DNA of 64,000 nt. Origin: a virus. Its lineage: Duplodnaviria; Heunggongvirae; Uroviricota; Caudoviricetes. This document shows, piece after piece, positions 19,502 through 36,709 of the stretch; the first letter of the stretch is position 1; every line of letters begins with the position of its first letter. The DNA is taken from the IMG/VR virus record IMGVR_UViG_3300017971_007904. One strand, given 5' to 3'. The notes below the pieces were generated by a model, which was not told where the DNA came from, ran no database searches, and was given only the letters and a program-made list of their open reading frames with translations. Made by a program: the position numbers and the translations under genes.

Positions 19502-19515
19502 TTGGAGGTGCAACC

Positions 19516-21144: not shown

Positions 21145-21193
21145 GGGCACGAAGCACCTCCTTGGGTCAAGTTCGCTGAACAGGGCCCTGCAC

Positions 21194-21233
21194 AGCCAGC
21201 CACCAGACATTGTCTGGTGGCTGGCTTTTTTTC
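21194..21233 (+). terminator. Rho-independent terminator after spoVR
   Basis: AGCCAGCCACCAGACA / TGTCTGGTGGCTGGCT stem followed by TTTTTTT. Confidence 0.8.
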
Positions 21234-21320
21234 TCATCTTTCTTGTCTCTCCTGCCGATACCTAGAATAGGAAGCATATTGCTACCTTAAGGATGAGGGT
21301 AACGTGTCCTTGGAGAAACC

Positions 21321-21989
21321 ATGCCTAGAGGTCCTAAGAAGCAAATCCCGCAATCAGAGGTGTCACAACTAATCAATGACGTGCATGGTTTGAATATCAA
21401 TGCACGAACCAGAGAACTCTTCTTAATGGGATATGCGGGAGATTCGCAGGAAGAAGACCCTGGAGTTGATTACCGTTCAGCCGGTACCTTTTTGAAGAAC
21501 TTGCACATCTTAGAGACCCTTGGCCGCTCCAAAATCATCGTCCACATGCAAATCACGGGCGGTGAGTGGAGTTATGGTATGGGCATTTACAATGCCATCC
21601 AGGCGGCAAAATCTTCTGTTACGATAGTCGCCTATGCTCACGCCACTTCGATGAGTGGTGTGATCCTTCAGGCGGCTGATAACCGCATCCTGATGCCGGA
21701 TACGCACTTCATGTTGCACTACGGTTCTCTGGGGATCGAATCGACCTCACAGGCCGTTTTAGCGTGTGTGGAGCAGAATGAGCGGGATAACAAGCGGATG
21801 CTTGAAATCTTCGCTGAGCGGGCCGTAGAGGGCCCACATTTCCGTGCCAAGCGGTGGGGCGTGAAACGAGTGTCCGATTACATCGACCACGAGATGCGGC
21901 AGAAAGGTGATTGGTACCTGAGCGCCACGGAGGCTGTGGAGTATGGCTTTGCGGATGGTGTCTTAGGACGAGACATTACGAAAGTATGA
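21321..21989 (+). CDS. ClpP-family (S14) serine peptidase
   Basis: ClpP-like core with catalytic Ser in ATSMSG and His in MPDTHFMLHYG; 222 aa. Confidence 0.75.
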   Translation: MPRGPKKQIPQSEVSQLINDVHGLNINARTRELFLMGYAGDSQEEDPGVDYRSAGTFLKNLHILETLGRSKIIVHMQITGGEWSYGMGIYNAIQAAKSSVTIVAYAHATSMSGVILQAADNRILMPDTHFMLHYGSLGIESTSQAVLACVEQNERDNKRMLEIFAERAVEGPHFRAKRWGVKRVSDYIDHEMRQKGDWYLSATEAVEYGFADGVLGRDITKV

Positions 21990-22000
21990 AAGGAGTAGAA

Positions 22001-22390
22001 ATGATTCAAGCATATAATATTGCTGAGTTCAGCAAGGTGACACTTTGGCACGAGTCGGAAGTGCTAAAAGCTAGACGAAAACGTAATTTGGCTCGCTTTT
22101 ACAAACAGTATGACGACTCGGATGGCTCTGGAACCCTTTGGCGGATATGCCTTAATTCGGATCACAACGAAAGTCTCGATATGGAGAAGGGTGGTTGCTA
22201 CGAGGTTCCTTTGTCTCGAATGACGACACCCGCAGCGTTTGTTAATTGGTTGGTCCATTTGAGTGACAAAGAGTGGTTCACGGCCCAAATGCAAGCCGAT
22301 TTTATCACAGAGTTATTTGATGCCTTAGTGGCGATAAATGTATCACCGCATGACTGCGGTAACGAGTGGAACTGGCCTGAAGGAGAATAA
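22001..22390 (+). CDS. hypothetical protein
   Basis: ATG at 22001 with AAAGGAG SD (listed ORF 21911..22390 starts inside clpP). Confidence 0.5.
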   Translation: MIQAYNIAEFSKVTLWHESEVLKARRKRNLARFYKQYDDSDGSGTLWRICLNSDHNESLDMEKGGCYEVPLSRMTTPAAFVNWLVHLSDKEWFTAQMQADFITELFDALVAINVSPHDCGNEWNWPEGE

Positions 22391-22391
22391 A

Positions 22392-22625
22392 ATGCCAAGA
22401 AAGAAAGAGGAACCTATGGATATCATGAACATTGACATCTTGAATCCAGAGTTTATAGCCTTAGCTACGGAAGCCAAGGAGCTTCACGACAAAAAAGAGG
22501 CTACCACCGCTGAGTTCAAGAAGCTTTATGTGAAGCACAAGGCCGACATGGCTGAACTCGAACACGAGGCCGAGGAACTCAAGAAGAAGATGGCTGCGCT
22601 AACCACAGAAAAAGCTTCAGAATGA
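22392..22625 (+). CDS. hypothetical coiled-coil protein
   Basis: ATG at 22392 with GGAGAA SD; charged helical sequence. Confidence 0.45.
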   Translation: MPRKKEEPMDIMNIDILNPEFIALATEAKELHDKKEATTAEFKKLYVKHKADMAELEHEAEELKKKMAALTTEKASE

Positions 22626-22664
22626 CCCCCGTATTCTCCGATACTTAAGAAGACGGAGGATGAC

Positions 22665-25193
22665 ATGAAGAAGTGTGAAACGTGTGGCCTAGAGCATTTG
22701 CATCGACACTCAGATTTCTCTCTCCTAGACGGGTTTGCTACCGTCGAGGAGTATGCGGCTTACTCCGAGGCCGCTAATCAGAAGTATCTGTGTATCAGCG
22801 ACCACGGTATGCTTGGTTGCATCCCCCGCCAGATTCGGGCTTGTGACGAGTACAATCTTCAGCCGGTATTTGCCTGTCTTACCGCTGGCCAGCCGATATA
22901 TCTAAAGGATGGAATCAAGCCAATCGAAGAGGTATTGGTTGGTGATCAGGTGTTGACCGATAAGGGTCGTTATCGCAAAGTACTACGAGTGATGAGTCGG
23001 CGGTATCAGGGAAGTCTTTATAAAGTCAAGTTGGCGAACCAAACTGGTAGAGCCTTGATGCAAACGCTAACAGGGGAGCATCCGATTCTCATAAGGAGCT
23101 ATAATGGTCAATATAGCTGGATACCAGTATCGCAAATATTGACAGGCCGTCCCACTACGAAGCGTGGACTTAAAAACCACAATTCGTATGTCTGTTATCC
23201 GCAGAGCAGATCGTCACGTTCTGTAACTTTGAAGATTAGTGACTATCTTCCTGATATTTTTGAATGCGGTGATACCATTGTTCGTACTGGTTGGAAAGGG
23301 GTAGCTGCTTATGAGTGGGAAATTCCACCTGAGTTTGAATTAGATGAGAATTTTGCATATTTCTTGGGCTTATATGTGGCGGAAGGCTCATCGACCACCA
23401 ATAAAAAAGGTTTGCCAAATGGAGCTATGAGGTTGTCATTACATGCCAAAGAGTCTCCTTTGGTGGAAAGGTGCCAACCTGCTGTTGAAGCATTTGGTAT
23501 CAAATTTCATTTGTATCCACGACCTGAGATCAATCGTTTAGATGTTCATTTTGGTTGTCTACCCTTATCTTACATCATTAGGCAACTGTGCGGTATTGGA
23601 TCGCATTGCAAAAAAGTACCCTCCCCAATCTTTCAAAGCTCACTTTCGGTGAAAAAGGCTTTTATGGAAGGTTTGATGGATGGCGATGGCAAAATTAGTG
23701 GTGTGCAAGATGTGTTGAGGGTAGCGTCAAAAGAGTTGGCGTGGGGTGTCAAGAGATTGTTATCCGATTTAGGGTATTGGTCTAATGTTGGGCTTTCTAA
23801 GGATGGTGACAAGGAGTGCTACCATCTCAGTTATTGTCCGGAACGAACATATGCTAGAAGTTTTGTCGAAGATGGCTCTGTAATGTCACCGGTTCAAGAC
23901 ATTGTTGAATTACGTGATCAAGATGTCATGGTATACAATTTAGAGGTAGAAGAGGACAACAGCTATGTCAGTTATTTCGCTGTACATAACTGTGAGTTGT
24001 ACGTCAACAACGCACAACCCATTTGCCGAGACCCAGAAGACTACGTCAAATACGTCGAAGAGAACTCTCCCGAGACGAAGGAGACCCTTCGTAAGTCCTA
24101 TCATCTACTGGCGATAGCTTACACGAATCAAGGTTACAGCAACCTCGTACAGCTTGCGTCGTGGGGCCACATTTATGGTTGGGGTGGCGTACCACGTCGA
24201 CCACGGATCACGCACGAGCAGTTGATGAAGCACAAAGAGGGCTTGATCTTTTCATCGTGTTGCTATCTCTCGGAGATTGGTCAAACCTTTGATCGGTACG
24301 GTCGAGATGCCGCTTTTGCCATGATCGAGAAGTACATGGCCATGTTTGGCGATAACTTCTATCTGGAGTTGATGCTCTTGGACTTCAAGAAGCAAAAGCC
24401 ATACGACCAGTTTCTTATTGAGGCTCATGACCGGTATCACATCCCTCTGAACATCACGCAGGATTGCCACTACTGCAAACAAGAGGATGCTAAGTACCAG
24501 CAGTATATGCTGATGATACGCACGAAGCACACGGTGGCTGACATTGAGGCGGCTATCGAACAGGGTGAGGCAAGGGAAGGTTTCTTTGAGTTACAGGATC
24601 AGCAACTTTGGATGAAAACTGAAGAGGAGTTGAACGAAAAGTGGAACGAAGATTACACCGACGCAATCCCGTATGAACTCTTTTGTCAGGCTAAGCATAA
24701 CACGGTCGAGATATGTCGGAAAGCCGAAGGAGTTGAGATCGACCGTACCATCAAGTTGCCCGAAATCGACGAGGCTGACGAGAAGCTCTGGGAGGGGCTT
24801 TGTAAAGGTTTCAAATGGCGAGGTTTGGAGGGTAAGGCTGACTATATGCAACGCTTGAGAGAGGAGTATGAGCTTATCTGCCGCAAAGACTTCTCCAGTT
24901 ACTTTCTCTTGACAAAGATGTTTACGGATGAGGGTCGTCGAGCGTGCCCCAAACTGATTGGTTGGGGAACTGGCGAAGAGGCAATTAGCCCTGGCCGAGG
25001 GTCGGGTGTGAGCTTCCTATCCAATTACGTCTTGGGTATTACGGATGTTGATCCAATCCGCCACGACTTAGTCCCAGAAAGGTTCCTCAGTGATGCACGG
25101 GGTGGTCGTCAACTGAAGCTACAGTTTGATAGTGAGCCGATTAGTACGGCTCATAGTCATCCGGAATCTCCCAATCATCCGGAATCGGAATGA
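22665..25193 (+). CDS. dnaE: DNA polymerase III alpha subunit (DnaE), N-terminal fragment (PHP domain through the GPGRGSG region), interrupted by an intein
   Basis: PHP motif LHRHSDFSLLDG; after the intein, SYFLLTKMF...SPGRGSGVSFLSNYVLGITDVDPIRHDLVPERFLSDAR aligns with E. coli DnaE ~residues 300-400; the last ~30 aa are non-homologous. Confidence 0.85.
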   Translation: MKKCETCGLEHLHRHSDFSLLDGFATVEEYAAYSEAANQKYLCISDHGMLGCIPRQIRACDEYNLQPVFACLTAGQPIYLKDGIKPIEEVLVGDQVLTDKGRYRKVLRVMSRRYQGSLYKVKLANQTGRALMQTLTGEHPILIRSYNGQYSWIPVSQILTGRPTTKRGLKNHNSYVCYPQSRSSRSVTLKISDYLPDIFECGDTIVRTGWKGVAAYEWEIPPEFELDENFAYFLGLYVAEGSSTTNKKGLPNGAMRLSLHAKESPLVERCQPAVEAFGIKFHLYPRPEINRLDVHFGCLPLSYIIRQLCGIGSHCKKVPSPIFQSSLSVKKAFMEGLMDGDGKISGVQDVLRVASKELAWGVKRLLSDLGYWSNVGLSKDGDKECYHLSYCPERTYARSFVEDGSVMSPVQDIVELRDQDVMVYNLEVEEDNSYVSYFAVHNCELYVNNAQPICRDPEDYVKYVEENSPETKETLRKSYHLLAIAYTNQGYSNLVQLASWGHIYGWGGVPRRPRITHEQLMKHKEGLIFSSCCYLSEIGQTFDRYGRDAAFAMIEKYMAMFGDNFYLELMLLDFKKQKPYDQFLIEAHDRYHIPLNITQDCHYCKQEDAKYQQYMLMIRTKHTVADIEAAIEQGEAREGFFELQDQQLWMKTEEELNEKWNEDYTDAIPYELFCQAKHNTVEICRKAEGVEIDRTIKLPEIDEADEKLWEGLCKGFKWRGLEGKADYMQRLREEYELICRKDFSSYFLLTKMFTDEGRRACPKLIGWGTGEEAISPGRGSGVSFLSNYVLGITDVDPIRHDLVPERFLSDARGGRQLKLQFDSEPISTAHSHPESPNHPESE
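22875..23990 (+). mobile_element. intein (372 aa) with LAGLIDADG homing-endonuclease domain inserted in the DnaE PHP domain
   Basis: N-splice block CLTAGQPIYL, block B TLTGEHPIL, LAGLIDADG-like FAYFLGLYVAEGS and FMEGLMDGDGKIS, C-terminal VYNLEVEE...FAVHN followed by extein Cys (CELYV). Confidence 0.8.
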
Positions 25194-25653
25194 ATTGTGG
25201 TGGTTTGTCGGCCCGGTACATGATGACTTCGGCGTGGGTTTCTTGTATATCGATATCCCAGCCCAACATGTCTTGTTCGGGCATTATCACAAAGAAGCAA
25301 TTACTGCCGTAGCTACCACCCATGCCCCATCGATCACTACCGAATGGTTCGCTTTTTGAAACAAAGACCCATCGTATTCCGTTATCCCATAGGAACTCTT
25401 CCATCTTTTCGGCCCACTCTTCATACTCACCGGAGTATTTGTCGTTGTTTGGAGGTTCTTGGATGCCTAAGTCGTAAAGTTTATCAGTTAGATTGTAAGG
25501 TATGTGCTCCAGAATCCAATTACCCCATTGTGACTGGGTAAAGTAACTGGCTACGATACGGCCATCTGGCTTTTCGTACTTGCTACAATGAAAACCCCTG
25601 AAGTCGGGACTCTCCATTGGATCGTTCTGTTCAAGCCATAGTCGGAATTGCAT
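25141..25653 (-). CDS. hypothetical protein (Trp/acidic-rich), overlapping the 3' tail of the dnaE N-fragment
   Basis: 170-aa ORF with protein-like composition; overlaps the non-homologous tail of the DnaE N-fragment by 53 nt. Confidence 0.5.
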   Translation of the reverse strand: MQFRLWLEQNDPMESPDFRGFHCSKYEKPDGRIVASYFTQSQWGNWILEHIPYNLTDKLYDLGIQEPPNNDKYSGEYEEWAEKMEEFLWDNGIRWVFVSKSEPFGSDRWGMGGSYGSNCFFVIMPEQDMLGWDIDIQETHAEVIMYRADKPPQFIPIPDDWEIPDDYEPY

Positions 25654-25718
25654 GTCATATCTACTGGGAGAAAGGAGAAAATTGCCCTCCCGATGCTAAA
25701 TAACAAACAGACTAGGAG

Positions 25719-25904
25719 GTGGTTATGATCAAACGTGACGTAGACAACGCTCTGGTATTTGGTGTGTGTGCTGGCATAGCGAAGCACCTGGATGTCAGTG
25801 TGGCGTTAGTGCGTGTGCTAACGGTTTTGAGTTTCATTTTCACGGGCTCCATTACGTTTTGGGCCTATATCATAGCTGCGATTTTGCTGCCAAAAGAAGA
25901 ATAA
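25719..25904 (+). CDS. PspC-domain small membrane protein
   Basis: GVCAGIAKHLDV...VRVLTVL followed by a TM segment; SD AGGAGG. Confidence 0.6.
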   Translation: MVMIKRDVDNALVFGVCAGIAKHLDVSVALVRVLTVLSFIFTGSITFWAYIIAAILLPKEE

Positions 25905-25919
25905 TGTGTAGGAGAAGCA

Positions 25920-27149
25920 ATGGGTAAATACCGTGCTTTTGATGATTTCGTTGAAGGTAAGAAGCTTGATGACAAGCCCCCTAAGAAGGCGAAGGTGAGT
26001 GCTGATGTGCCACCACAAGGTAAGAACCCCACGCCTTATTACGGCCCTCATGCGAAGAACGACCCCAAGCCGAAGCTGAGAGTTGTCGAGAAGCCAGCTA
26101 ATGCACTTGGCGATGAGGCAACACCGGCGCTGAAAAAACCCGAAGATAACCTTCCCTCTGGTAAGAAGCCGTCTCACGACCATATGACAATCGAGAGATA
26201 CATCGAAGCTAGGAATAAGGGTAAGAAGATCAAGGATGAGTACGATGGCAAAGTTCGTGTCAGGGTGACTGATAAGGTTGAAGCGGGTCTCGGCGACGAG
26301 GCTAGCCCCCGCATGGAGAAGCCAGATACGAACCTCCCCACGGGCAAAAAGCCGACTCGAAAGGGTTTGACTACTGAGGAATACTTGAGGGAAACGGAGG
26401 AGCTTTCCGACTCCGAGTTCATCATCTCTGAGGTAAAAAAAACGAAAAACGACGATGAAGATGTCGGCCCGGTAATGCATTGCCAACGAAGGGGTATCGC
26501 AATAGTCCCCTCATCGAGTGAGGCAGCTAGTTACATGGCCAGCGTTATACCCATCAATGATCGTGCGGTGCGAACACTCGTACACGAAGTGATAAACACT
26601 CCGGGTGCATTGGGAGCTTTGATCGCAGAATTGGCAGCACATAATGATACCTACTCAGAACTTGTAGGTCAGATGAATGGTCCTGATTCAAGAGTACCAC
26701 GTCGTTTGGTGAAAGCAATGAGAGAAGACTATGATAAGTTCATGTCAGACCTCGGGCTCAACGAAGCGGTGAATGCACCAATGGATGATCGGGATAAGGC
26801 TGCCGACCCGGTCCCGGCCCCGGCCCCCGAAGGAGCAGCCTCACCTACGTCTGAGATTACAGCAGGTGCTAGTTTAATGGGACCGGAAGGTGTTCCCGGT
26901 GGACCAGCCCCAGCAGCAGGACCAGGACCAGGACCAGGACCAGGACCAGTAGGGCCGCCTCCAGCACCGGCACCGGGACCTCCAGCGCCAGCGGCAGGTG
27001 CGCCAGCAATGCCGCCAGCAACGCCGCCAACAGCGGGTGGACGACAGCCACTAGCGGCAAACAGGAAGTTTGCATACCATCACGTCCTGAAAGAGATGGG
27101 CAAACACGATAACATGATGAATTATATGAGAGAGATAATAGGTGGTTAA
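25920..27149 (+). CDS. repeat-containing Pro/Ala/Gly-rich protein
   Basis: Two ~45-aa repeats (ALGDEATPALKKPEDNLPSGKKPS... / GLGDEASPRMEKPDTNLPTGKKPT...) and a C-terminal PAPAPGPGPGPGP tract; SD AGGAGA. Confidence 0.6.
   Translation: MGKYRAFDDFVEGKKLDDKPPKKAKVSADVPPQGKNPTPYYGPHAKNDPKPKLRVVEKPANALGDEATPALKKPEDNLPSGKKPSHDHMTIERYIEARNKGKKIKDEYDGKVRVRVTDKVEAGLGDEASPRMEKPDTNLPTGKKPTRKGLTTEEYLRETEELSDSEFIISEVKKTKNDDEDVGPVMHCQRRGIAIVPSSSEAASYMASVIPINDRAVRTLVHEVINTPGALGALIAELAAHNDTYSELVGQMNGPDSRVPRRLVKAMREDYDKFMSDLGLNEAVNAPMDDRDKAADPVPAPAPEGAASPTSEITAGASLMGPEGVPGGPAPAAGPGPGPGPGPVGPPPAPAPGPPAPAAGAPAMPPATPPTAGGRQPLAANRKFAYHHVLKEMGKHDNMMNYMREIIGG
26919..26948 (+). repeat. (GGACCA)x5 hexanucleotide tandem repeat inside the CDS (encodes GPGPGPGPGP)
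   Basis: Direct reading of the sequence. Confidence 0.8.
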
Positions 27150-27150
27150 C

Positions 27151-27582
27151 ATGACAAGATTCAAATCGTGGAACGAGTACGCTACGGAACGTGCGGCAAA
27201 CGAAGGTAAGGAGCCAACAAACGAAAGTAAGGACACCAAGAAGGAGTTCATCCATCTTTCTAAGACGCCTGAAGAGCAGAATGCTACGTGCTCTGGTGAG
27301 CCCCTTGATCTGACTTACCGTGAGGAAGACGAGTATAAGAAGATGTTAGACTTCCTTCGAGGTAAGAAGAATGTCCCCGATCCTCCGAAACCACCCGCCG
27401 AAGCACCGAAAGGTTGGTTCATCGCCGATGAGCAGAGCCGTGGTTTCTGGTATGACAATGGTTGGACTCAAGACACTAGTTTCCTCAATGAAGCGGTTAT
27501 CGATTCAGAGCGAGCAGCACACGCTTTAGCCCAGGTTGTGGGCGGCGTTGTCATCCCCGCTGAAGAGGTAATGGGTAACTGA
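27151..27582 (+). CDS. hypothetical protein
   Basis: ATG at 27151 with AGGTGG SD; 143 aa. Confidence 0.5.
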   Translation: MTRFKSWNEYATERAANEGKEPTNESKDTKKEFIHLSKTPEEQNATCSGEPLDLTYREEDEYKKMLDFLRGKKNVPDPPKPPAEAPKGWFIADEQSRGFWYDNGWTQDTSFLNEAVIDSERAAHALAQVVGGVVIPAEEVMGN

Positions 27583-27635
27583 CATTGACTCAGTTTTCTC
27601 CATAAATTACAATACGTCTACTCCATTGGGAGTAA

Positions 27636-27985
27636 GGGGGCGACAGGTATCGATTGGCTATGTCGATAACGGGTTGCCTGCCGTGGTTGGTCAGCAGGCC
27701 ACGTAAAAAGCCGACCACTAAACTTTAAGTGCCGAACCGGTACGAATGGCTGCTTAAGAGTAGCCCAGGCCAAGGAAGCCCGCCAGCGGCGTCCGGAAGC
27801 CTGCCGAAAATGTTGGCTGGATTCAGGTCATTGTCGACTACGCCTGGGTTGAGATCAGTTGTCATGACTAGCCGTTAGAACTTTGTTCGCCGAGGTCGAA
27901 TCGGTAAAACCAAAAGACGAACTATTGCAGGTAGACGCCTTTTTGAGACTAGTGCAACACAGCGGTTCGAGTCCGCTCGCCTCCA
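27636..27985 (+). ncRNA. ssrA: tmRNA (ssrA)
   Basis: 5' GGGGGCG pairs with 3' CGCCUCC as a 7-bp acceptor stem carrying the G3:U70 alanine identity pair; T-arm AGCGG-UUCGAGU-CCGCU; internal GGUUGG...CGUAAAAAGCCG closely matches E. coli tmRNA upstream of the tag ORF; candidate tag reading frame GCC GAA CCG GUA CGA AUG GCU GCU UAA (AEPVRMAA) at 27730-27756; discriminator A; CCA not fully encoded. Confidence 0.8.
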
Positions 27986-27994
27986 CTTTCTACA

Positions 27995-28040
27995 CCACCA
28001 CCCTTCCAGCCTAGTGGCTGGAAGGGTGGTGGCCCCTTTC
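27995..28040 (+). terminator. Rho-independent terminator after the tmRNA
   Basis: CCACCACCCTTCCAGCC / GGCTGGAAGGGTGGTGG 17-bp stem, 4-nt loop, then CCCCTTTCT. Confidence 0.7.
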
Positions 28041-28053
28041 TGAGGACGAACCG

Positions 28054-28260
28054 ATGAAAAGTCTTCCCTACCTTATCATGTTGTTCGTTATTTTTCCACT
28101 TGGCATCTGGCATCATTTTTGCAATAAAGTGGTGGTAACAGGCCCGGCAACTCCCCACGAGTTCATGATTGCGAATTACAGCCAACACCCCGTCTTCACA
28201 GGGGTCTTTTTCGGAGTCTTTGTACTAATACTCGTCTTGATGGCGATTACTTGGAAGTAA
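28054..28260 (+). CDS. small hydrophobic membrane protein
   Basis: 68 aa with two predicted TM helices. Confidence 0.4.
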   Translation: MKSLPYLIMLFVIFPLGIWHHFCNKVVVTGPATPHEFMIANYSQHPVFTGVFFGVFVLILVLMAITWK

Positions 28261-28283
28261 CCCTTTTATCAGGAGGTATCACG

Positions 28284-28418
28284 ATGAAACGGCTTTCAAT
28301 GTTAATCTATGATGTTTATCCGTGTGAAGGTTATCTTGCCGCCGACCCTCCTGACAACCCAGAGATTTCGGCACCGGACTCCATCGACTTATCAGAAGTT
28401 GGAACGGAACGAGAATGA
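28284..28418 (+). CDS. 44-aa upstream ORF translationally coupled to the GluRS-like gene (possible leader peptide)
   Basis: Strong SD AGGAGGT 6 nt upstream; its stop TGA overlaps the ATG of the next gene (gaATGa); its first 15 nt ATGAAACGGCTTTCA nearly duplicate the start of the next gene (ATGAAAACGGCTTTCA). Confidence 0.4.
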   Translation: MKRLSMLIYDVYPCEGYLAADPPDNPEISAPDSIDLSEVGTERE

Positions 28419-29743
28419 AAACGGCTTTCATTTACCACGCCTCCTGGGTGCCCGGATTGCATCTTGGAGCAGCCCGACTTGCGCTGTTGAACTACCTTTA
28501 TGCCAAAAAGCATGGTGGTTCGTGTGTTCTTATCTGTAATGATATCGCATCGCCGCCCAAGCCGTTCCACGACAGCCTCCCAATGTTGTTGGAGTGGCTG
28601 AACATCCGCTGGGGGGAAGGCCCATACCACAACGTCCACTTCAGGGGGAAGTATCGTGAGGTGGTAGAGCGTCTGCTCAGTTGCAACTTGGCCTATTACG
28701 ATTACGCCACACCGGAGGAGATTCACAGCGAGCAGCAAGCTGCTCGTAAGTCGAAGGAGCCATTCCTTTACAGTCGCTTGTATGAAGGTCACACGCCCAC
28801 TGACTGCCGGAACTGGGAGGCAGAAGGCCGGAAAGCTGTTATTAGGCTTCGGATGCCTCGGACGGATGATGAGACCTACCGTTACGAAGAGGCGATTATG
28901 GATGATATGATCTACGACCGCAAGATTACCGATCTGGCGACGGAAAATGACTACGTCATTCAGCGAACTGACGGCAGTTACACAACATATCTCACGCAAG
29001 CGGTTGATTACGATCTCCACAACATCGATGTTGTGTTCAGGGACATCAATGATCGGGCTTCGTTAGCCGCCGAAACCTTCATTGCCAGATGGGCGGGCTT
29101 GAAGCAGCCTAAGTTTGGCCATATTCCTTACTTTGCTGGGCCTGTTGGCTCTCATCGGTTCTCACCCAAGCACGATAAGGATTATGCCCGCCACGTCGAG
29201 TTTTGCGAGATGCTCGATCTGGTCATGGAGATTGACGCCAAGATTCCAACTTACTCACAATGGGGCGTTTTTCATCCGTGTTATGTGCGATTTTACGAGA
29301 AGGTTGGATTCCTCCCAGAGGCGGTTTCTCACTACCTGTATCAGTCGCTCCTGAAAACGTCTGTAGAATGCGATTCTAGGCCCCTCACAGCCTCTCAGAT
29401 GGCCTCTAAGCTCGAATTGGACTCAGTAGACCCTGGTATAAAACAATTCGATACAGAGGCTCTGGAAGCCTGCCAGAGGGAGGCTATGAAAGGCTGCGGA
29501 TTAGGGCGTAAAGCTAAGCTCATTCACTCATTGGCTCGCTCGATCCGCCCCTTCGATTACAAGCGTGATTTTGGAGGCGTGCAATCAGAAGCGGTTCAAG
29601 CCTTTAAGGATTTTGCTGAAAGCCAGGACCTCTTCTTGATAGGAGAGGCGGCTCTTCGCCCAAATGATCTTCCATGCGGCTTTGCACCTGAGCCTACGCT
29701 TGAAGAGGACGCTTTTACCAACGAAGGCTGTCCACACAGTTGA
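28415..29743 (+). CDS. class-I aminoacyl-tRNA synthetase catalytic-domain protein, glutamyl-tRNA synthetase / GluQ-RS-like
   Basis: N-terminal WVPGLHLGAARLALLNYLYAKKHGGSCVLICNDI resembles the GluRS HIGH region (PSPTGxLHxGxARTALxNWLxAR..GGxFxLRIEDTD); 442 aa, no recognisable anticodon-binding domain. Confidence 0.65.
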   Translation: MKTAFIYHASWVPGLHLGAARLALLNYLYAKKHGGSCVLICNDIASPPKPFHDSLPMLLEWLNIRWGEGPYHNVHFRGKYREVVERLLSCNLAYYDYATPEEIHSEQQAARKSKEPFLYSRLYEGHTPTDCRNWEAEGRKAVIRLRMPRTDDETYRYEEAIMDDMIYDRKITDLATENDYVIQRTDGSYTTYLTQAVDYDLHNIDVVFRDINDRASLAAETFIARWAGLKQPKFGHIPYFAGPVGSHRFSPKHDKDYARHVEFCEMLDLVMEIDAKIPTYSQWGVFHPCYVRFYEKVGFLPEAVSHYLYQSLLKTSVECDSRPLTASQMASKLELDSVDPGIKQFDTEALEACQREAMKGCGLGRKAKLIHSLARSIRPFDYKRDFGGVQSEAVQAFKDFAESQDLFLIGEAALRPNDLPCGFAPEPTLEEDAFTNEGCPHS

Positions 29744-29780
29744 ATCTTGCTCGTGAATACGCTAAATAGGGCGAGCCACG

Positions 29781-30482
29781 ATGTCTGATAACATCCACAG
29801 ACCGAAAGATGTGAGAGCAGCCATCTTCGATTTGGATGGTGTGATCATTTCGTCGAAAGTGGCCGAGTACGAATCGTGGCGTAGGGTCTTCCGAGTCTTC
29901 AACTCTAACTTGACACTCCAACAGTGGGTCAAGATCATCGACAGTCCAGACGGTGTATTCGATCCCGCAACCGTCTTGAGGCAAAAATGCAAGATAGAGT
30001 TGCTTGCCAACGGCCAAATCGAGACCATGAGGACGAACCTGTATGAGTCGCTGCGCCGGGAGCTAGTAGCATTGCCGGGGATCGTGGGGCTCATCAAAGA
30101 ATGCACATCAATGGATTTGATGCTTGGTGTGGCCTCCAACGGAGACCACACCAAGGTAATGTACCACTTAGGTCGACTCAAGTTGCTTCGTTACTTCCAT
30201 GTGATCAAGTGTCGGGACGATGTTCGGAACAAGAAGCCCGCCCCGGATATCTATATGGCCACCGTGCGGGACTTGGGCGTGAATCCTGGGACCGTAGTTG
30301 TCTTTGAGGATTCCCCACCAGGGATCACTGCCGCCAAAGCGGCTGGCCTGTATTGCATTGGGTGCCCGAACAAGATCACGAAGTATCTCGACCTTTCTGA
30401 AGCGGACGAGATATGCAAGTCCTTCAAACGTTTCTCTATGCAAGAGTTCATTAACCCTGCCAACAAACTGACGAGGTTGTAG
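29781..30482 (+). CDS. HAD-superfamily hydrolase, beta-phosphoglucomutase/phosphatase-like
   Basis: Motif I AAIFDLDGVII; motif II GVASNG; motif III/IV KKPAPDIY...FEDSPPGITAAKAAG. Confidence 0.8.
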   Translation: MSDNIHRPKDVRAAIFDLDGVIISSKVAEYESWRRVFRVFNSNLTLQQWVKIIDSPDGVFDPATVLRQKCKIELLANGQIETMRTNLYESLRRELVALPGIVGLIKECTSMDLMLGVASNGDHTKVMYHLGRLKLLRYFHVIKCRDDVRNKKPAPDIYMATVRDLGVNPGTVVVFEDSPPGITAAKAAGLYCIGCPNKITKYLDLSEADEICKSFKRFSMQEFINPANKLTRL

Positions 30483-30507
30483 ATGAAACAGGAGGTTATC
30501 AAAAAGC

Positions 30508-31440
30508 TCATGGGGTGAGTAGACATCGGCGAATAGCTTCTTTTACCTTGACGGTAGGTTGAAAGCCCAGGTCTCTTTCGGCTTTTGATATGTCTGGAAC
30601 CCTAACCAACACATCGTCTTTGTATTCCTTCATCGTTTCAAACTTGAGTTCCTCTTTGCCTTGGTAGATCAACCTCGCTAGGTCTTTCATTGTGATGGGT
30701 TCTGGATTCCCGATGTTGTAGGTTTCATTGTTGGTTTTGTCTTCAAATGACCACTCACCAATGATGTTAGCAACATCCTCGATCCAGGTGAAACACCTTA
30801 TCTGGTTACCGTCACCAATGATGGGCAATGGGTTTCTACTTTCATTCGCTATCTTCTGAATGAAGTCGGCGAACACATGACTTAAACCCTGTTCTTTCCC
30901 GGCAATTTCATGTGGGCTTATTATGTTGAAAGGTCTCCAGATGACGTACCGGATGTCATATTGTTGAGCGAAAGCCCTACACATTCTTTCGCCGACCACT
31001 TTGGACAAGCCGTAGTCTGTGGAGGGTGTCGGTGACTCAAATGCATCTTCTTCTTTACTTGGCTGGTTATGGCACCTTTCGTAGACCATGGAAGAACTGA
31101 TGTATGCTATCTTCTTGACATGATGCTTCACCATAGCCCACAGAATGTTTTGGTGTAGAGCGACATCTTTCGATAGAATATCTGCTGCGTGCTTGTGGAA
31201 TCCGCCCACACCGTAGCACAGCGCCGCTGCCTGTACTACGCCGTCGACTCCCGTCATCACCTCATCCACGAACTTGCTATCGGTAAGATCGCCTCGATGA
31301 AAGGTATAGGTTCTAGTTCTATTGATTTCACCGTATCGAACAAAGTTATCCACCCCTAGAACTTCATGGCCGTTCTTCATCAAGACTGGGATCACGAATT
31401 GCATCAATGACCCTTCTGATCCCGTAACAAGTATCTTCAC
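30508..31440 (-). CDS. NAD-dependent epimerase/dehydratase (extended SDR) family protein
   Basis: N-terminal Rossmann VTGSEGSLMQFV; catalytic YGLSK (YxxxK); 310 aa. Confidence 0.75.
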   Translation of the reverse strand: MKILVTGSEGSLMQFVIPVLMKNGHEVLGVDNFVRYGEINRTRTYTFHRGDLTDSKFVDEVMTGVDGVVQAAALCYGVGGFHKHAADILSKDVALHQNILWAMVKHHVKKIAYISSSMVYERCHNQPSKEEDAFESPTPSTDYGLSKVVGERMCRAFAQQYDIRYVIWRPFNIISPHEIAGKEQGLSHVFADFIQKIANESRNPLPIIGDGNQIRCFTWIEDVANIIGEWSFEDKTNNETYNIGNPEPITMKDLARLIYQGKEELKFETMKEYKDDVLVRVPDISKAERDLGFQPTVKVKEAIRRCLLTP

Positions 31441-32234
31441 ATCTCCCTCATTCCGTCAAAAACAGTTGTCTCGAACTGTTCGTTATCGCTCAAGACAGCT
31501 TGAAAGAGTCTTCCCTTTGTCTGTAGTTCGTTTGCCAGTTGACTGATGGTATGAGTATCTTTCGGTAGACACACGCCGCCGAAACCCTTGAAGTTATCGT
31601 TGCAGTCTAAGTAACTATCTGTAATATGGCTTCTATTCACAGCGGCGTTTTTAACCGTAGTGTAATCAACATTCATCTTCTCGCATATTTCGTAGAAGTT
31701 GTTTGCGAATGTCACTAGGGTGGCGTTGTAGACATTGATGAAGTATTTCACCAATTCGGCCTCTGTGGGAAGAAGTCGGACTGTTTTCTTCGGATACTTC
31801 CCATGAGCGGATTTAATGATCTCAAAGACACAGGAAGTCTTTGTTCCGATTACGCATAGGTCATGATTCTCCATAAAGTCAGATATAGCACATCGCTCTC
31901 TTAGGAACTCGGGAACATAGCATAGAATCCTACTTGGGTATTCGTGCTGTAGCCTTTCAGTAAAGCCCGGTTCTACAGTTGATTTGATTGCTATTATCCC
32001 AGCGTAGTCGATTGCGTCTAATTCGTTTATTACACTTTCGACAATGCTAACATCGCACTTGCCAGTGCCCAGTGAGGGTGTGGGTACGCAAATGAATGCG
32101 ATTTCCGTATTTTCCAGGTCTCGAATTGAGGTCTCGCATTTCGTATCGTGAACGAAGACTCTGTGCCCTATCTTCTCAAAGCCTTCCTTTATGGCTGAGC
32201 CTACAACACCTAAACCGATTATTCCTATCTTCAT
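31437..32234 (-). CDS. UDP-glucose/GDP-mannose dehydrogenase-family protein, short form
   Basis: Start taken at MKIGIIGLGVVGSA (GxGxxG); IKSTVEPGFTERL and YVPEFLRERCAISDF...DLCVIG match the UDPGDH N-terminal and central domains; no C-terminal UDP-binding domain (265 aa). Confidence 0.65.
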   Translation of the reverse strand: MKIGIIGLGVVGSAIKEGFEKIGHRVFVHDTKCETSIRDLENTEIAFICVPTPSLGTGKCDVSIVESVINELDAIDYAGIIAIKSTVEPGFTERLQHEYPSRILCYVPEFLRERCAISDFMENHDLCVIGTKTSCVFEIIKSAHGKYPKKTVRLLPTEAELVKYFINVYNATLVTFANNFYEICEKMNVDYTTVKNAAVNRSHITDSYLDCNDNFKGFGGVCLPKDTHTISQLANELQTKGRLFQAVLSDNEQFETTVFDGMREM

Positions 32235-32299
32235 GCCATAAGAGAGGGTTTGTTGAGAAAATGCTAAGGTTTTTGGCCCGATAAGCCGATACATGAAGT

Positions 32300-34936
32300 A
32301 TGACGAAGAAGGAACTGCTGAAGAAGTTATGCCTTGGGCGAATGAAGAAACTAGGCATACTTGATGCTGCGCACCTTGCTCGTCTCAAGAATGAACTTAT
32401 CGAGATCGAAGTTCAGGACCAATACGAGTATTTTCTAGGCCATTGTAAGAGTGGAACCCGCTGGGAACACAACGACCACAATCTGTTGGTTCCTTATCTC
32501 CTCAATCTATGTCCCGAGTTTGATATCACGAAGGAAACCGCCTTTACGATGGGTGAGTTTCCGGACATCGATGTGGACTATCTGGCTGTCGTGCGTGAGT
32601 ATCTGATGAACGAGTGGGCTCCAAAAAAGTTCGGAGCCGACAAGGTTTGCCATATTGGCACCTATTCCACGTACAACCTCAAACAGTCGCTAATCGACAT
32701 GGCTCGCATCTTTGGCGAGAGTAGAACTGAAGTGATGAATGTCACGACCCAGTTTGGTGCGAAGGATGACGAGGGTGATGCTTTGACCTGGGAAAAAGCC
32801 CTAACCATCTATCCGTCCTTTCGAGAGTACGTCAAGAACCACCCCGACGTGGCGGATGCCGCAAAGAAGATTTGTGGTCGGAATCGCAATATGGGCCAGC
32901 ATGCTGGTGGTTTCATTGTGTCTCGAACGCCCCTGACTGGTTTTGTACCATTGGTCCGAAACAAGAAGGATAACCAGCTTATGACGGCGTGGCCCGAGGG
33001 GCAGTCGGCGCAGGAGCTACAGGCGGTGGGCTTGGTAAAGCTGGACTTACTTTCGAGCAAGATGTCGACCCAGATCAAGGACTGTATTGGTTTGATTCGC
33101 CAGCGTCACGGCGAGGTGAAGATTTCGGCAAGAGAGGGGGGCTCGAATTGGTCGGATCATTCGTACTTGGACGATCCGAAGTGTATGGAAATGGCCAATA
33201 AGGGTGACTTACGATTCATCTTCCAATTTGATTCAGATGGTATCCGTCGTCTCGTTAGGACTGGTGGCGTCGATGGGTTTCAGGACTTAGAGGCATATTC
33301 GGCGTTATATCGTCCTGGGACCCTGAGCATGGGCATGCATGACGTGTACTGCAACCGGAAGAAAGGTAAGGAGGTATTCGACATACACCCTGTCTTGGAG
33401 CCGTATTTGCAAAAGACGTATGGTGTAGCAGTCTTCCAAGAGAGCGTGATGAAGGTTCTAAACAAGGCGGGCGGAATCCCGCTGCGGGATTGTATGGCGG
33501 TAATTAAGGCCATCAGCAAGAAGAAAATCGAGAAGTTTGCGAAGTACAAAGAGCTATTCATCCGGAACAGCCAGAGGATTCTGGGGATCAAGAAGGAGGC
33601 TGCCGGGCAGTTTTGGGAGCAGATTGAGGCGTTTGCTGGTTACGGGTTTAACAAGGCTCACTCTTGCGTCTATACGCATGTAAGCGCCCGACAGCTATAT
33701 CTGAAGTGTTACTATCCACTGGAGTACTATTGTAGTTATCTGAATCACATCAAAGGCGCAGACGCAAAGATGCGTGATTGTGTGCGGGATGCTGCTCGAC
33801 ACAATGTAACGGTTAACTCAATCGACATCAACAAGTCGGAAGAGCATTTTCAGATTGCGGATGACGATGAAATCTACTTCGGATTTGCCAACGTCAAGCA
33901 TGTGGGCGAGAAAGTGGCTACGAGGTTAGTAGAAGAGCGACGTAACGGCCCCTTTACGGACTTCCAGAACTTCCTAGATCGATTTGGGACGGATGCCAAG
34001 ATCATCCAGGCCCTTGTTTCTCTGGGGGCCTTTGAGGGTGATCCGGTTTGTCTCTACGAGTATTACGAGTACTACAAGGATTATCACACGAAGCAGACGC
34101 AGCGACGGAAGAGGTATGAGGTAGCACTTAAGAGGTACGAAGATCAATTCCATGAATTTGCCGGTCACAATTTCGCCTTTGGTACTGAGGAGCAGATTAC
34201 CTTCGCAATCGATAATATCGATGATGAGGAGGCTAAGGCAAAGCTTCGTCGCCTGCGTGGGAACTATCGCCGTACCTTGACGAACAATACAAACAACGAG
34301 CGGAACGATACAGGCCCTGTATCATTTGAAAATTTCGTTTCGCCAAAGAAATCTGCTATCAAAGAGGACCTTCGCAAGATTCTACAAGACAAGGCAGTAG
34401 CCGAAATTGAGTATTACGGTTTCACATGGTCCAGCCCGCTGGAAAGTTGCCCTAATCTCGAAGGGGACACGTTTGCGGAATACCGGTCTGCCCGTCTAGC
34501 TTTGGGCCCCGTGGAGGGAGCTATACAGGATGTGCGGGAGGTGAAGAGCCGAAAGGGTAATAAGTACTACGTTGTACAGCTTCTGGATGCTAACTGGGAA
34601 CTTGGGTTCGTCAATGTCTGGACGGCAGACATGGCTGAGTTTACCGATAAGTTGAAACCTGGGAATATTGTCCGCATGCGGCTTCAGGCTCCCAATCCTA
34701 AGTTTGCTTCTGAGCGGTACAGTCTGGAAAGCTACCCTCGGAAGCGACGGGGTATCACACGAGAACAGTCAAACGCTCGTGTTATGATACTACGTTCTCC
34801 GGATCAAGAGGTAAAGGTCGTGACCAATGAGCCCCCAATTACTCTTGATAAGGAAAGGGAAAAGAAATTGGAGGTAAAAGAGGATGTCGAAACAGCCGAA
34901 CTGTACCAAGACCTCGACAAACTCCTCGGCTTATGA
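32300..34936 (+). CDS. dnaE: DNA polymerase III alpha subunit (DnaE), C-terminal fragment (palm/fingers/thumb core)
   Basis: PDIDVDY, GQHAGGFIVSRTPL and FNKAHSCVYTHVSARQLYLKCYYPLEYY catalytic-core motifs; its N-terminal ~80 aa re-encode the helical region (ARLKNELIEIEVQDQYEYFL) also present at the end of the N-fragment. Confidence 0.88.
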   Translation: MTKKELLKKLCLGRMKKLGILDAAHLARLKNELIEIEVQDQYEYFLGHCKSGTRWEHNDHNLLVPYLLNLCPEFDITKETAFTMGEFPDIDVDYLAVVREYLMNEWAPKKFGADKVCHIGTYSTYNLKQSLIDMARIFGESRTEVMNVTTQFGAKDDEGDALTWEKALTIYPSFREYVKNHPDVADAAKKICGRNRNMGQHAGGFIVSRTPLTGFVPLVRNKKDNQLMTAWPEGQSAQELQAVGLVKLDLLSSKMSTQIKDCIGLIRQRHGEVKISAREGGSNWSDHSYLDDPKCMEMANKGDLRFIFQFDSDGIRRLVRTGGVDGFQDLEAYSALYRPGTLSMGMHDVYCNRKKGKEVFDIHPVLEPYLQKTYGVAVFQESVMKVLNKAGGIPLRDCMAVIKAISKKKIEKFAKYKELFIRNSQRILGIKKEAAGQFWEQIEAFAGYGFNKAHSCVYTHVSARQLYLKCYYPLEYYCSYLNHIKGADAKMRDCVRDAARHNVTVNSIDINKSEEHFQIADDDEIYFGFANVKHVGEKVATRLVEERRNGPFTDFQNFLDRFGTDAKIIQALVSLGAFEGDPVCLYEYYEYYKDYHTKQTQRRKRYEVALKRYEDQFHEFAGHNFAFGTEEQITFAIDNIDDEEAKAKLRRLRGNYRRTLTNNTNNERNDTGPVSFENFVSPKKSAIKEDLRKILQDKAVAEIEYYGFTWSSPLESCPNLEGDTFAEYRSARLALGPVEGAIQDVREVKSRKGNKYYVVQLLDANWELGFVNVWTADMAEFTDKLKPGNIVRMRLQAPNPKFASERYSLESYPRKRRGITREQSNARVMILRSPDQEVKVVTNEPPITLDKEREKKLEVKEDVETAELYQDLDKLLGL

Positions 34937-35552
34937 AAAGCTATTCGGGGAGAATCAGGACATTTTAGAGGAAGTGGAGAGCCGAGGGCATTCAATCAAT
35001 GAGTTCAAAGGTTGGTTGATGCGCAATGACGACCCGGCTCCCGACAAGTTGACACTCACAGATGTTTGCCATTTCCTTGACTGGAAAGAGTCCTTGAAAA
35101 CTGTCGAGATTGATGAATCTAACTTTGAGCAATACTTCTTTGACATTAGAAAGAACGGGCCAAAGCCTGGGCAGGTGCTGGCATGTTATGAAGCAATGGC
35201 AGATTTCGTGGATGGGAATATGAAGCGGGATGTCATCCACATACTCATGCACAGTGACAAAGGTGGCGAAGCGGGCCCGAGGTTACTTCGGAAGCTTGCC
35301 GGTGCCACAGAATCGTCTGCCTTTCGTGTTATTCGGGAGATGGTGAAGGACTTACTTTCCGGTATGAGTTCTGAAGAGGTAGCGAAGAAAGCGTATGAAA
35401 TGCGGTGCCAACACTTCTATTACACGCAAAAGGAGTGCCTTCCAGAGGATGATCCCCACTGGTGGAGCACCTGTTTGATTGATGTTAACCACCCATCACA
35501 GGAAGAAATCAACCGTGTAATGTCTGAACTTTCGCAAGAATCGCAAAATTAG
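34884..35552 (+). CDS. hypothetical protein
   Basis: 222 aa; GGAGG SD; overlaps the dnaE-C end by 53 nt. Confidence 0.5.
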   Translation: MSKQPNCTKTSTNSSAYEKLFGENQDILEEVESRGHSINEFKGWLMRNDDPAPDKLTLTDVCHFLDWKESLKTVEIDESNFEQYFFDIRKNGPKPGQVLACYEAMADFVDGNMKRDVIHILMHSDKGGEAGPRLLRKLAGATESSAFRVIREMVKDLLSGMSSEEVAKKAYEMRCQHFYYTQKECLPEDDPHWWSTCLIDVNHPSQEEINRVMSELSQESQN

Positions 35553-35602
35553 TAGTTCCTTGCTAAATACTACTGTGGTCATATACACAAAGGTCGATTG
35601 CT

Positions 35603-36157
35603 ATGGAACACGAAAATATACGAGACGAGTTGGAATACTACCAGGGCTTGTGGGACAATGCCCAAGACAAGATGCAAGTAGAACCAATCCACCCCCACCC
35701 CCAATCTGAAGAGGCTCCCAAGAGAATTGACGCCAATGAGCTTTTGAATGAGCGACGGGCGGCGGCTGACCGTGAACTGGATTGGCGGGATATGTTACTG
35801 GTGTCTGAGAACATCGATAAGATATTCAACCCCGAACGGATTGACGAAGCCGAAAGGAGTAAGTCAGCAGTAGCCGATGTCGCCAAACGAGCGGCCAGTG
35901 CCCCCAACCCAGTTGAGAAGTGGACTTTAGGGAAAGATCAGGCTTTGCGGGTTACTCCGAATTTCAACGATAGTGAAGCTCTTCGAGAATTGGCCGATCT
36001 GAAAATTCGTTTTGAGGCTCTGGAGCGGGAAATACATGCCTCTAATGTGCATGGTGAAGAAAAACAAGAAAATAAACTAAACAAACAGCTTGATTCTCTC
36101 CGATCTAAACTAGAGGAGCTTAACGATCAGTTAACTCCACACATGTACGACCTTTGA
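35603..36157 (+). CDS. hypothetical coiled-coil protein
   Basis: 184 aa, charged/helical. Confidence 0.5.
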   Translation: MEHENIRDELEYYQGLWDNAQDKMQVEPIHPHPQSEEAPKRIDANELLNERRAAADRELDWRDMLLVSENIDKIFNPERIDEAERSKSAVADVAKRAASAPNPVEKWTLGKDQALRVTPNFNDSEALRELADLKIRFEALEREIHASNVHGEEKQENKLNKQLDSLRSKLEELNDQLTPHMYDL

Positions 36158-36177
36158 TCTAGTTTCGGAGAAAGACA

Positions 36178-36708
36178 ATGCCAATTCGTCACGTAAAGGC
36201 TCCAGCCGCTATTATGGAGCGCATGGCCGCTGTCCAGGCCAAGAACCACCCGCACCTCGATGATGCACTCATCTGTATCGAGTTCGTCGACTCGAAGCCC
36301 TACCTGAAGGACAGGCTCAACCTCGGTAAGGTTGCTAAATTCTCAGCAGCCTTGAAGCTCTGGCTACACAACAGCTACGATTTTCGCCTGAGTATCTGTA
36401 GCGATGTGTGGTACGATCTACTGGATGATGACCAGCGAGAGGCGTATCTCGACCTCCTACTCACCCGGTGCCAGATCGAATACGAACCGAACACCGTGGT
36501 GGTGAATGGTAAGAGGCAGGTTGTGAAGGATGAGTGGGGTCGGATCGAATACACCGACGAACCCAAGTATGATGATGAGGGCCATCCGGTATGGAAAGTG
36601 TCGCCCTTGGACATCGCCGTCATCTCACAGAACATCAAACGGTATGGCTTGTGGTTTGATGATTTGGTAGAATTGAAACAAGCCATTGAATCCCATGAGA
36701 AGGAATGA
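36178..36708 (+). CDS. hypothetical protein
   Basis: 176 aa with SD. Confidence 0.5.
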   Translation: MPIRHVKAPAAIMERMAAVQAKNHPHLDDALICIEFVDSKPYLKDRLNLGKVAKFSAALKLWLHNSYDFRLSICSDVWYDLLDDDQREAYLDLLLTRCQIEYEPNTVVVNGKRQVVKDEWGRIEYTDEPKYDDEGHPVWKVSPLDIAVISQNIKRYGLWFDDLVELKQAIESHEKE

Positions 36709-36709
36709 G

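Follow-up and report, generated by a model that had tools for sequence, protein, structure and literature searches.

In this study, we found that DnaE (DNA polymerase III alpha) is encoded by two separate, conserved genes in a 64,000-nucleotide stretch (hereafter the window) of the Caudoviricetes virus record IMGVR_UViG_3300017971_007904 and in a large uncultured clade of huge phages. The two gene products, designated the N half and the C half, probably form a non-covalent heterodimer with a composite active site, as judged from their sequences. DnaE, the principal replicase of bacteria, is regarded as a single-chain enzyme. Its known natural split, in cyanobacteria, is mended by protein splicing. 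In the window, the break lies inside the palm domain, and the two halves overlap in homology at their ends. The features of the two genes are as follows (positions are those of the window; aa, amino acids).

22665-25193, plus strand: N half of DnaE, an 842-aa precursor with the PHP domain and the helical, NTP-binding first part of the palm
22875-23990, plus strand: predicted class-1 LAGLIDADG intein, aa 71-442 of the N half (372 aa; Pfam LAGLIDADG_3, E 1e-10)
24783-25100, plus strand: N-half copy of the overlap segment, palm helices with an intact GRGS (24993-25004), through RFLSDAR
25098-25127, plus strand: tail motif RGGRQLKLQF, where canonical DnaE has the xMPDIDVDF strand
25128-25193, plus strand: non-conserved end of the N half, after the conserved DSEPI (25128-25142), overlapping the 3' end of a convergent gene (25141-25653)
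32300-34936, plus strand: C half of DnaE, 878 aa, with vestigial palm helices, catalytic palm, thumb, fingers, helix-hairpin-helix (HhH, the beta-binding region) and OB fold
32300-32560, plus strand: head of the C half (aa 1-87), degenerate helices of the palm N-part minus the GS residues
32561-32581, plus strand: catalytic strand PDIDVDY (D89, D91, D93), aligned with PDIDTDF of Taq and PDFDVDF of E. coli
33035-33052, plus strand: third catalytic Asp (D249) in VKLDLL, aligned with VKFDFL of E. coli

Both open reading frames (ORFs) were found where the original prediction had placed them. The N half, whose mature length would be 470 aa once the intein is removed, matched Pfam PHP (E 9e-25) and covered only positions 18-98 of the 260-position Pfam DNA_pol3_alpha. 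The C half covered positions 100-259 of the same family and also matched DNA_pol3_finger (E 1e-35) and HHH_6 (E 3e-19). When the two fragments were aligned with Taq DnaE, as had been proposed, the N half corresponded to residues 8-458, its aligned part ending in ERFLSDAR, and the C half to residues 460-945 (E 3e-67). The break is thus mapped between Taq residues 458 and 460. It lies inside the palm, past the GPGRGSG...ERFLS helices, and one or two residues separate it from the PDIDVDY catalytic strand that follows. The cut separates the NTP-binding helices of the GS motif from the strand with the two metal-binding aspartates of the Pol-beta-like palm. The GRGS sequence occupies aa 777-780 of the N-half precursor, and all nine PHP metal ligands (H, H, D, H, E, H, C, D and H, within HLHRH, LLDG, DHG, CELY, YHLL, SSCCY and DCHY) are in the N half. 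The elements of a DnaE palm, namely the GS motif and three catalytic aspartates, are all present but are shared out between two chains. These chains are not one polypeptide, since the first ORF ends in a stop codon at 25191-25193 and the second has a separate ATG at 32300. The C half starts with its own Met, as predicted, and an in-frame TGA stands two codons 5' of it.

Structural models were also compared with known DnaE structures. The AlphaFold2 (AF2) model of the C half had a predicted local distance difference test (pLDDT) score of 88.6. Its best structural matches were the full-length DnaEs of M. tuberculosis, Taq and E. coli, with which it aligned over 822-909 columns in the top nine matches, and its C-terminal part resembles OB/SSB folds. 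For the N half, the AF2 model of a 77%-identical proxy (P0121) had a pLDDT of 88.5 and matched DnaE structures at a TM-score (TMq) of 0.60-0.65. A 222-aa ORF (34884-35552) shares 53 nucleotides with the end of the C half and lies directly downstream of it in 42 related loci. It had no Pfam or PHROG match and may be an accessory factor of the polymerase.

We examined whether the same two halves occur elsewhere. A search with the C half found 5,526 proteins at E <=1e-30, and details were taken from the best 120. All of these 120 homologues are without PHP. Save for longer ones, among them several with intein domains, their length is about 810-955 aa. The homologues listed for the spliced N half have PHP and the first part of DNA_pol3_alpha, at 54-77% identity. 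Protein ends at the same places were found in more than 100 homologues of each half (40-77% identity), which in some cases lie on contigs of up to 670 kb. G-R-G-S was invariant in 94 of 94 N halves and absent from the C halves, and the nine PHP ligand columns were invariant or nearly so in 94 N-half homologues. P88, D89, D91, D93, K247 and D249 were invariant in 89 C halves, and the aspartates were found only in the C half. We also collected 86 loci from IMG/VR, metagenomes and look-ups. Of the split loci, 27 show both halves, and in every one of these the N half precedes the C half on the same strand, with a gap of 887-9,605 bp (median about 3.9 kb). The pairwise distances of the N and C halves were correlated (Mantel r 0.74, p 2e-4) in 14 genomes, comprising 13 split pairs and the intact LR756511. 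The original prediction had offered a functional split polymerase as one of two explanations; the conservation, this correlation and the intact versions in relatives support it.

The region had no match in a megablast search against 50,697 phage records. At the protein level, the intact LR756511 was the only close phage record, and other phage DnaE matches were below about 32% identity. By these searches, the split clade is absent from deposited phage genomes save for the intact LR756511. One split C half (P0043) is on a 546-kb contig labelled as a 'Crenarchaeota archaeon' metagenome-assembled genome at NCBI; this is probably a huge-phage contig assigned to an archaeal genome during binning.

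A stretch of ~80-100 residues of canonical DnaE is represented in both halves. The profile of the N family reaches residue 397 of E. coli alpha, and the profile of the C family begins at residue 317. The N-half copy of this segment matched the palm of intact DnaEs with an hhalign E of 2e-28, and residues 1-85 of the C head matched the palm N-part of intact DnaEs with an E of 1e-9 over 68 columns. In 9 of 17 distant intact DnaE loci (L070-L086), the N and C queries from the window overlapped by 287-299 nucleotides. Pairwise BLASTP of the two copies was not significant (E 0.09), and local profile-profile comparison gave E values of 5e-6 to 8e-5. The earlier statement that both fragments retain the same ~80-aa segment therefore holds as profile homology (E. 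coli residues 317-397) and not as pairwise similarity. The C head was gapped by 10-11 residues over the GS motif in two independent alignments, opposite VPVGPGRGSG of E. coli (HMMER) and IPCGARGSGVG of L070 (hhalign). The C copy is therefore a GS-less vestige, and the account of the C fragment re-encoding the segment has to be corrected in that the GS motif is missing. The head is well conserved (RLxxELxEI...YFL...NxxNLLVPYLLG, with E32, N58 and N61 invariant) and was modelled as four helices with pLDDT >90. A phmmer search of 1.84 billion representative proteins with the head alone found 91 proteins, nearly all of which were matched at residues 1-90. As these matches are almost always N-terminal, the head is a signature of split C halves.

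The other overlapping end is the tail of the N half, which reads RGGRQLKLQFDSEPI in the window. It had been described as ~30 non-homologous residues. We found that its first ~10-14 residues (RGGRQLKLQF..PI) are a family motif, and that the last ~16 indeed appear lineage-specific. The family consensus after RFLSxAR is R-G-G-[KR]-[SQ]-[MIL]-K-[LI]-[RK]-F...P, with the F present in 117 of the 120 listed N halves. In a global profile alignment, which had no significance of its own, L, L and F of the tail fell on the hydrophobic positions and Q, K and Q on the three Asp positions of the canonical hDhDh strand; this alignment is suggestive. When the N half was modelled alone with AF2, its tail had a pLDDT of 53-60 and no secondary structure. 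A sequence that is conserved yet disordered when modelled alone fits a peptide that folds only on a partner. The motif is also similar to QLxLxF, the bacterial clamp-binding consensus, and Q[LMI]x[LIFM]xF was fitted by 36 of the 120 listed tails. The tail may double as a sliding-clamp-binding motif of this type. The predicted overlap with a minus-strand gene was confirmed: the N half and a convergent 170-aa ORF (25141-25653) share 53 nucleotides. Within the shared part, an 18-nucleotide tandem repeat (25150-25185) encodes HSHPES/PNHPES at the end of the N half and, on the other strand, IPDDWE/IPDDYE at the end of the 170-aa ORF.

Because the GS motif is found only in the N half and the three aspartates only in the C half, a heterodimer of N and C with a composite site is the best supported reading. 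The spliced N subunit would give the PHP domain and the GS motif, and the C subunit would give the three catalytic aspartates, thumb, fingers, HhH and OB fold. The two would bind non-covalently and thereby rebuild one composite active site. The likeliest docking surfaces would be the vestiges, namely the GS-less helical head of the C half and the N-half tail at the position of the DxDxD strand. As the nine PHP metal ligands are kept, the N half is probably an active PHP 3'-5' proofreading exonuclease. The 20 largest other ORFs of the 64-kb window included no family B polymerase, and this screen of the window showed no other polymerase.

Several points weigh against this reading. We infer the physical assembly of the halves, the composite site and the roles of the head and the tail. 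Palm helices modelled at high confidence are retained in the C half as well, which would complicate the docking of the GS subdomain of the N half. The ATG of the C half is 5 nucleotides from the start codon of a divergent gene and is without an obvious Shine-Dalgarno sequence. Promoter-like sites were not enriched, with 17 found and 14.3 expected from shuffles; terminator-like sites were likewise not in excess (8 found, 11.4 expected). The check for a second polymerase covered 64 kb of a ~300-kb genome. In addition, ten unannotated ORFs of the window (including the 170-aa ORF, a 146-aa ORF and a 409-aa protein between the halves, and the 222-aa ORF) had no match in PHROGs, and the phage status rests on relatives, namely LR756511 and the IMG/VR contigs.

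The palm helices of the C half are also the basis of another explanation, in which the two halves are subfunctionalised pieces. The C half would then be a self-sufficient polymerase that does not need the GS motif, and the N half would be a separate, epsilon-like PHP exonuclease or pyrophosphatase, with a palm remnant that is at most a tether. This would agree with the pLDDT of >90 for the C half's own palm helices and with the invariance of all the PHP ligands. It would also agree with the loci in which no N half is nearby, since 8 of the 28 loci with 10 kb of upstream sequence have none within that distance. However, G-R-G-S is kept in all 94 N halves and its 10-11 residues are deleted from every aligned C head. 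A motif that is invariant in one half and deleted from the other is hard to reconcile with a dispensable one. Intact relatives, moreover, have a single canonical palm. We consider separate functions for the two halves to be unlikely.

Uninterrupted dnaE genes had been suggested as a check and were found in two relatives. LR756511, a 595-kb uncultured phage, encodes DnaE as one uninterrupted chain of 1179 aa that lacks both an intein and the duplicated segment, and its canonical junction reads RFLSKFRKDYPDVDVDF. L065 (1231-6345) has an intact 1704-aa DnaE of the split clade with several inteins. One of them is exactly in the GS motif (GPGRG/CLTGD...VHN/SDVG, slashes marking the intein ends), a site that differs from that of the PHP-domain intein of the window. 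Neighbour-joining trees (22 taxa, 200 bootstraps) were built for the N core, the C core and both combined, and were rooted on eight distant intact DnaEs. LR756511 was sister to the L011 split pair, with 64% and 60% identity compared with 47-56% for the others. A clade of all split members without LR756511 was recovered in 33, 0 and 19 of 200 bootstraps for the N core, the C core and both, respectively. These trees provisionally suggest that the split halves were re-fused in the LR756511 lineage. Since the derived head and tail are common to all split members, a single origin of the split with later re-fusion is the simpler reading. In either direction of change, an orthologue in one chain supports the view that the two parts work together.

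For the origin of the overlap, we infer an internal duplication followed by complementary loss. In its full form, the scenario would be a duplication of the first ~100 palm residues, complementary loss in the two copies, use of the vestiges as the heterodimer interface, a split ancestral to a large huge-phage clade and at least one re-fusion, in the LR756511/L065 lineage. The C copy would have lost the GS loop, and the DxDxD aspartates of the N copy would have become [QS]-x-K-x-[RK]. We regard this complete series as a tentative proposal, with the odds somewhat against it.

The halves are separated by the following features in the window.

25194-32299, both strands: interval between the halves, 7,106 bp of unrelated genes
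25141-25653, minus strand: ORF170, 170 aa, convergent to the N half
in the interval, after ORF170: PspC gene
in the interval: gene of a Pro/Ala-rich repeat protein of 409 aa, which holds a (GGACCA)5 repeat
26918-26948, plus strand: (GGACCA)5 repeat in the 409-aa gene, where near-identical assemblies diverge from the window
in the interval, between the 409-aa gene and the tmRNA: ORF146, 146 aa
27636-27988, plus strand: tmRNA with tag AEPVRMAA (ARAGORN; Rfam RF00023, 95.6 bits)
28415-29743: GluRS-like gene, 442 aa (Pfam tRNA-synt_1c, E 2e-25)
in the interval, after the GluRS-like gene: HAD hydrolase gene
30508-32294, minus strand: epimerase and UDPG-dehydrogenase-like (UDPGDH) genes

All genes that the original prediction had named in the 7.1-kb interval (PspC, repeat protein, tmRNA, GluRS-like, HAD, epimerase and UDPGDH-like) are present. 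In a relative with 52-66% identity (L005), the order is PrkA-DUF444-SpoVR-ClpP-x-N half-x-PspC-rep-ORF146-tmRNA-GluRS-like-C half. The window has the same order plus HAD, epimerase and UDPGDH, which are without counterpart in any related locus. The interval of L006 holds two LAGLIDADG endonuclease genes. Ten ORFs of relatives with a short gap comprised, by Pfam, one ankyrin-repeat protein, one LAGLIDADG/HTH protein and eight proteins without a match. In the interval of the window, no homing endonuclease was found with Pfam or PHROGs, and the tmRNA was the only Rfam match in 20000-37000, where introns and ribozymes were also sought. A search for target-site duplications at ~25194 and ~32299, which had been recommended, found none; the repeats consisted of short ones at chance level, the 18-nucleotide repeat and the GGACCA tract. 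In relatives, the inter-half DNA measures from 0.9 to >10 kb, and it behaves like a variable site for cargo genes.

The tmRNA lies between the halves in seven genomes (the window, L005, L011, L015, L049, L050 and L066), and a tmRNA position is also recorded in L001 (16444-16796). In the intact-DnaE phage LR756511, a tmRNA is ~1.9 kb upstream of dnaE. The tmRNA of the window is preceded by a sigma-70-like site with 10 of 12 matches (27585-27613) and followed by a perfect 17-bp hairpin (27995-28032), and the tag peptides vary widely across genomes. The GluRS-like protein has only the catalytic domain of a class-I Glu/Gln-tRNA synthetase, and in L005, L007 and L008 its homologues immediately precede the C half. 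Just upstream of the N half, a PrkA-DUF444-SpoVR module is followed by ClpP (15724-21989), in the same order as in L005, and SpoVR is near dnaE in ten loci. This kinase module, of a bacterial stress and sporulation type, apparently belongs to the stable content of such phage genomes. Elsewhere, the window carries a second UDPG-dehydrogenase-like gene (52740-53633) and a GDP-mannose 4,6-dehydratase (62435-63373). Among the other unusual cargo are genes for a pair of neighbouring SPFH/Band-7 proteins, for a TPP-dependent enzyme, for a full-length DnaJ and for a response-regulator-PAS protein; the coordinates recorded for this cargo are 9477-12620, 48271-49893, 54335-55501 and 1152-2012.

The original prediction had raised the possibility of an assembly chimera. 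Exact N and C proteins recur across several independent assemblies, and the split itself is no artefact. The physical link of the halves in the window does cross the (GGACCA)5 repeat, and it is here that an artefact of the 7.1-kb linkage, with the halves placed otherwise in the true genome, would have its basis. DNA of L089 and L090 that is 99.99% identical tracks the N-half side to 26945 and then continues into different genes, and L087 matches the C-half side only from 26918 and is preceded by different genes. The piece shared between the alternative assemblies is 28 bp of the tract. Alternative configurations are seen in ERZ27256783 and ERZ27256798. The alternative flanks at the tract (L087, L089, L090 and L091) have a TIR-domain gene on one side and a thymidine kinase on the other. 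Against an artefact in the window, the 409-aa ORF runs through the repeat, and its C-terminus after the repeat, FAYHHVLKEMGKHDNMMNYMREIIGG, is matched by that of the homologue encoded between the halves of L006, whereas the alternative assemblies enter a nonsense tail or AT-rich non-coding DNA past the repeat. L005, L007 and L008 also share the order of the genes that flank the repeat on either side. This homology supports the join in the window as the coherent version, and the alternative assemblies are either misjoins at the repeat or real strain rearrangement or recombination. An artefactual linkage thus appears quite improbable, and the existence of the split does not hinge on the join at the repeat.

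The account of the N fragment in the original prediction had missed a full LAGLIDADG intein at aa 71-442. This insert has all the features of a class-1 LAGLIDADG intein and is predicted to be one: Cys1 (CLTAGQ...), TGEH as block B, an end in ...AVHN followed by Cys+1 (CELYVN), and two LAGLIDADG motifs, FAYFLGLYVAEGS and FMEGLMDGDGK. Weak Hint matches were found in the N half with Pfam, together with a PDB match to PI-PkoII. The insertion site is directly before the metal-ligand Glu of PHP (PVFA/C...HN/CELYVN). The intein is absent from LR756511 (PVFGCELYVN), and orthologues read FxCELYVN without an insert. Among the 120 listed N-half homologues, 118 have lengths of 426-483 aa, which leaves no room for the intein. 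The GC content was 0.429 in the intein and 0.499 in the exteins.

Inteins and homing endonucleases have invaded this gene family heavily, and phage metagenomes contain atypical split inteins whose N parts are short. The two halves might therefore be imagined to be joined covalently after expression, by a split intein, RNA trans-splicing or programmed excision of the interval. However, the N tail begins with RGG... and has no Cys, Ser or Ala nucleophile at the junction. The C head consists of DnaE palm helices and not of IntC, and no HN followed by Cys, Ser or Thr stands before PDIDVDY (...TMGEF/PDIDVDY). With ends that lack intein signatures and a head that is DnaE sequence, covalent rejoining is unlikely. 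The Rfam search of 20000-37000 yielded no intron, neither a recombinase nor flanking repeats were detected, and conserved genes lie on both strands within the interval. Taken together, we give covalent joining hardly any credence. A decaying pseudogene, or a dnaE broken by a recent insertion as the original prediction had also proposed, would account for the unrelated genes on both strands between the halves and for the HAD, epimerase and UDPGDH genes unique to the window lineage, but is excluded for practical purposes by the shared ends, invariant active sites and co-divergence, since both ORFs are intact, the same ends recur in more than 100 homologues of each half, the 27 contigs have very different intervening DNA, and no target-site duplication was found.

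The two-gene DnaE was compared with known systems. In cyanobacteria (Ssp and Npu), dnaE is split into two distant genes whose products are trans-spliced by IntN and IntC at a site in the fingers region. The window is similar in having dnaE as two distant genes on the same strand. It differs in that its ends are without intein halves, the cut is in the palm, the ends overlap, and its intein is contiguous and lies in PHP. In T4-related phages, gp43 is split into 43A and 43B, and NrdA of Aeh1 is split by the homing endonuclease mobE. The products of such 'genes in pieces' reassemble non-covalently, and the intervening DNA often has homing endonuclease genes. The interruption of a phage replication gene is a common feature, and the relative L006 has two LAGLIDADG genes between its halves. 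However, the T4-related cases concern other enzymes, whereas the interval in the window is much larger and has conserved cargo (tmRNA, PspC), and its halves overlap in homology. All domains and catalytic residues of canonical single-chain DnaE (PDB 2HNH, 2HPI and 5LEW) are also present in the window halves, which differ in being two polypeptides with a duplicated, degenerate palm N-part and a PHP intein.

In group 2.2 jumbo phages, two separate genes were previously reported to encode the two proteins of a 'minimal' Pol III alpha (Iyer et al. 2021, Viruses 13:63, PMC7824862). The split separates the N-terminal NTP-binding from the C-terminal Mg2+/template-binding subdomain, and reconstitution was proposed, not shown (PMC7824862). 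The window DnaE is split at the same boundary. That enzyme consists of a core nucleotidyltransferase and a template-binding domain and occurs alongside a family B polymerase (PMC7824862). It has no PHP or other Pol III domains, whereas the window halves sum to a full-length DnaE and overlap in a vestigial ~80-100 aa, and no other polymerase was seen in the window. The B-family polymerase of PhiKZ consists of DNAP-N and DNAP-C, which form a stable 1:1 complex with a split palm (Basu et al. 2026 preprint, PMC13648687). Its active site is composite, with one catalytic Asp from each chain, and the assembly was established by cryo-EM and activity assays (PMC13648687). The C-terminal segment of DNAP-N and the N-terminal segment of DNAP-C fold together (PMC13648687). 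As in the window, there are two genes and a cut in the palm, with the exonuclease in the N chain and the fingers and thumb in the C chain. The PhiKZ enzyme belongs to family B and not family C, no duplicated or vestigial overlap is reported for it, and the assembly of the window DnaE is a prediction. PhiKZ is the best mechanistic precedent. We found no description of a full-length, overlapping two-gene DnaE of huge phages in the searchable literature, although such absence is not proof. The window DnaE joins the known split phage polymerases as a full-length, overlapping form.

Annotation pipelines label both halves as 'DNA polymerase III alpha' or 'hypothetical'. This two-half labelling can therefore skew both the counts and the phylogenies of dnaE from huge phages. 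The interval between the halves is a recognisable cargo hotspot for tmRNA, PspC, homing endonucleases and sugar-modifying genes. If the duplication and re-fusion scenario is true, these phages would hold a natural fission-and-fusion series for a replicative polymerase, and the nested intact relatives would be a natural fusion control. If the two halves do form a heterodimer, the DnaE fold would tolerate, and could persist as, a two-subunit enzyme cut between its nucleotide-binding and metal-binding halves. Such an enzyme would be the C-family counterpart to the solved split B-family polymerase of PhiKZ.

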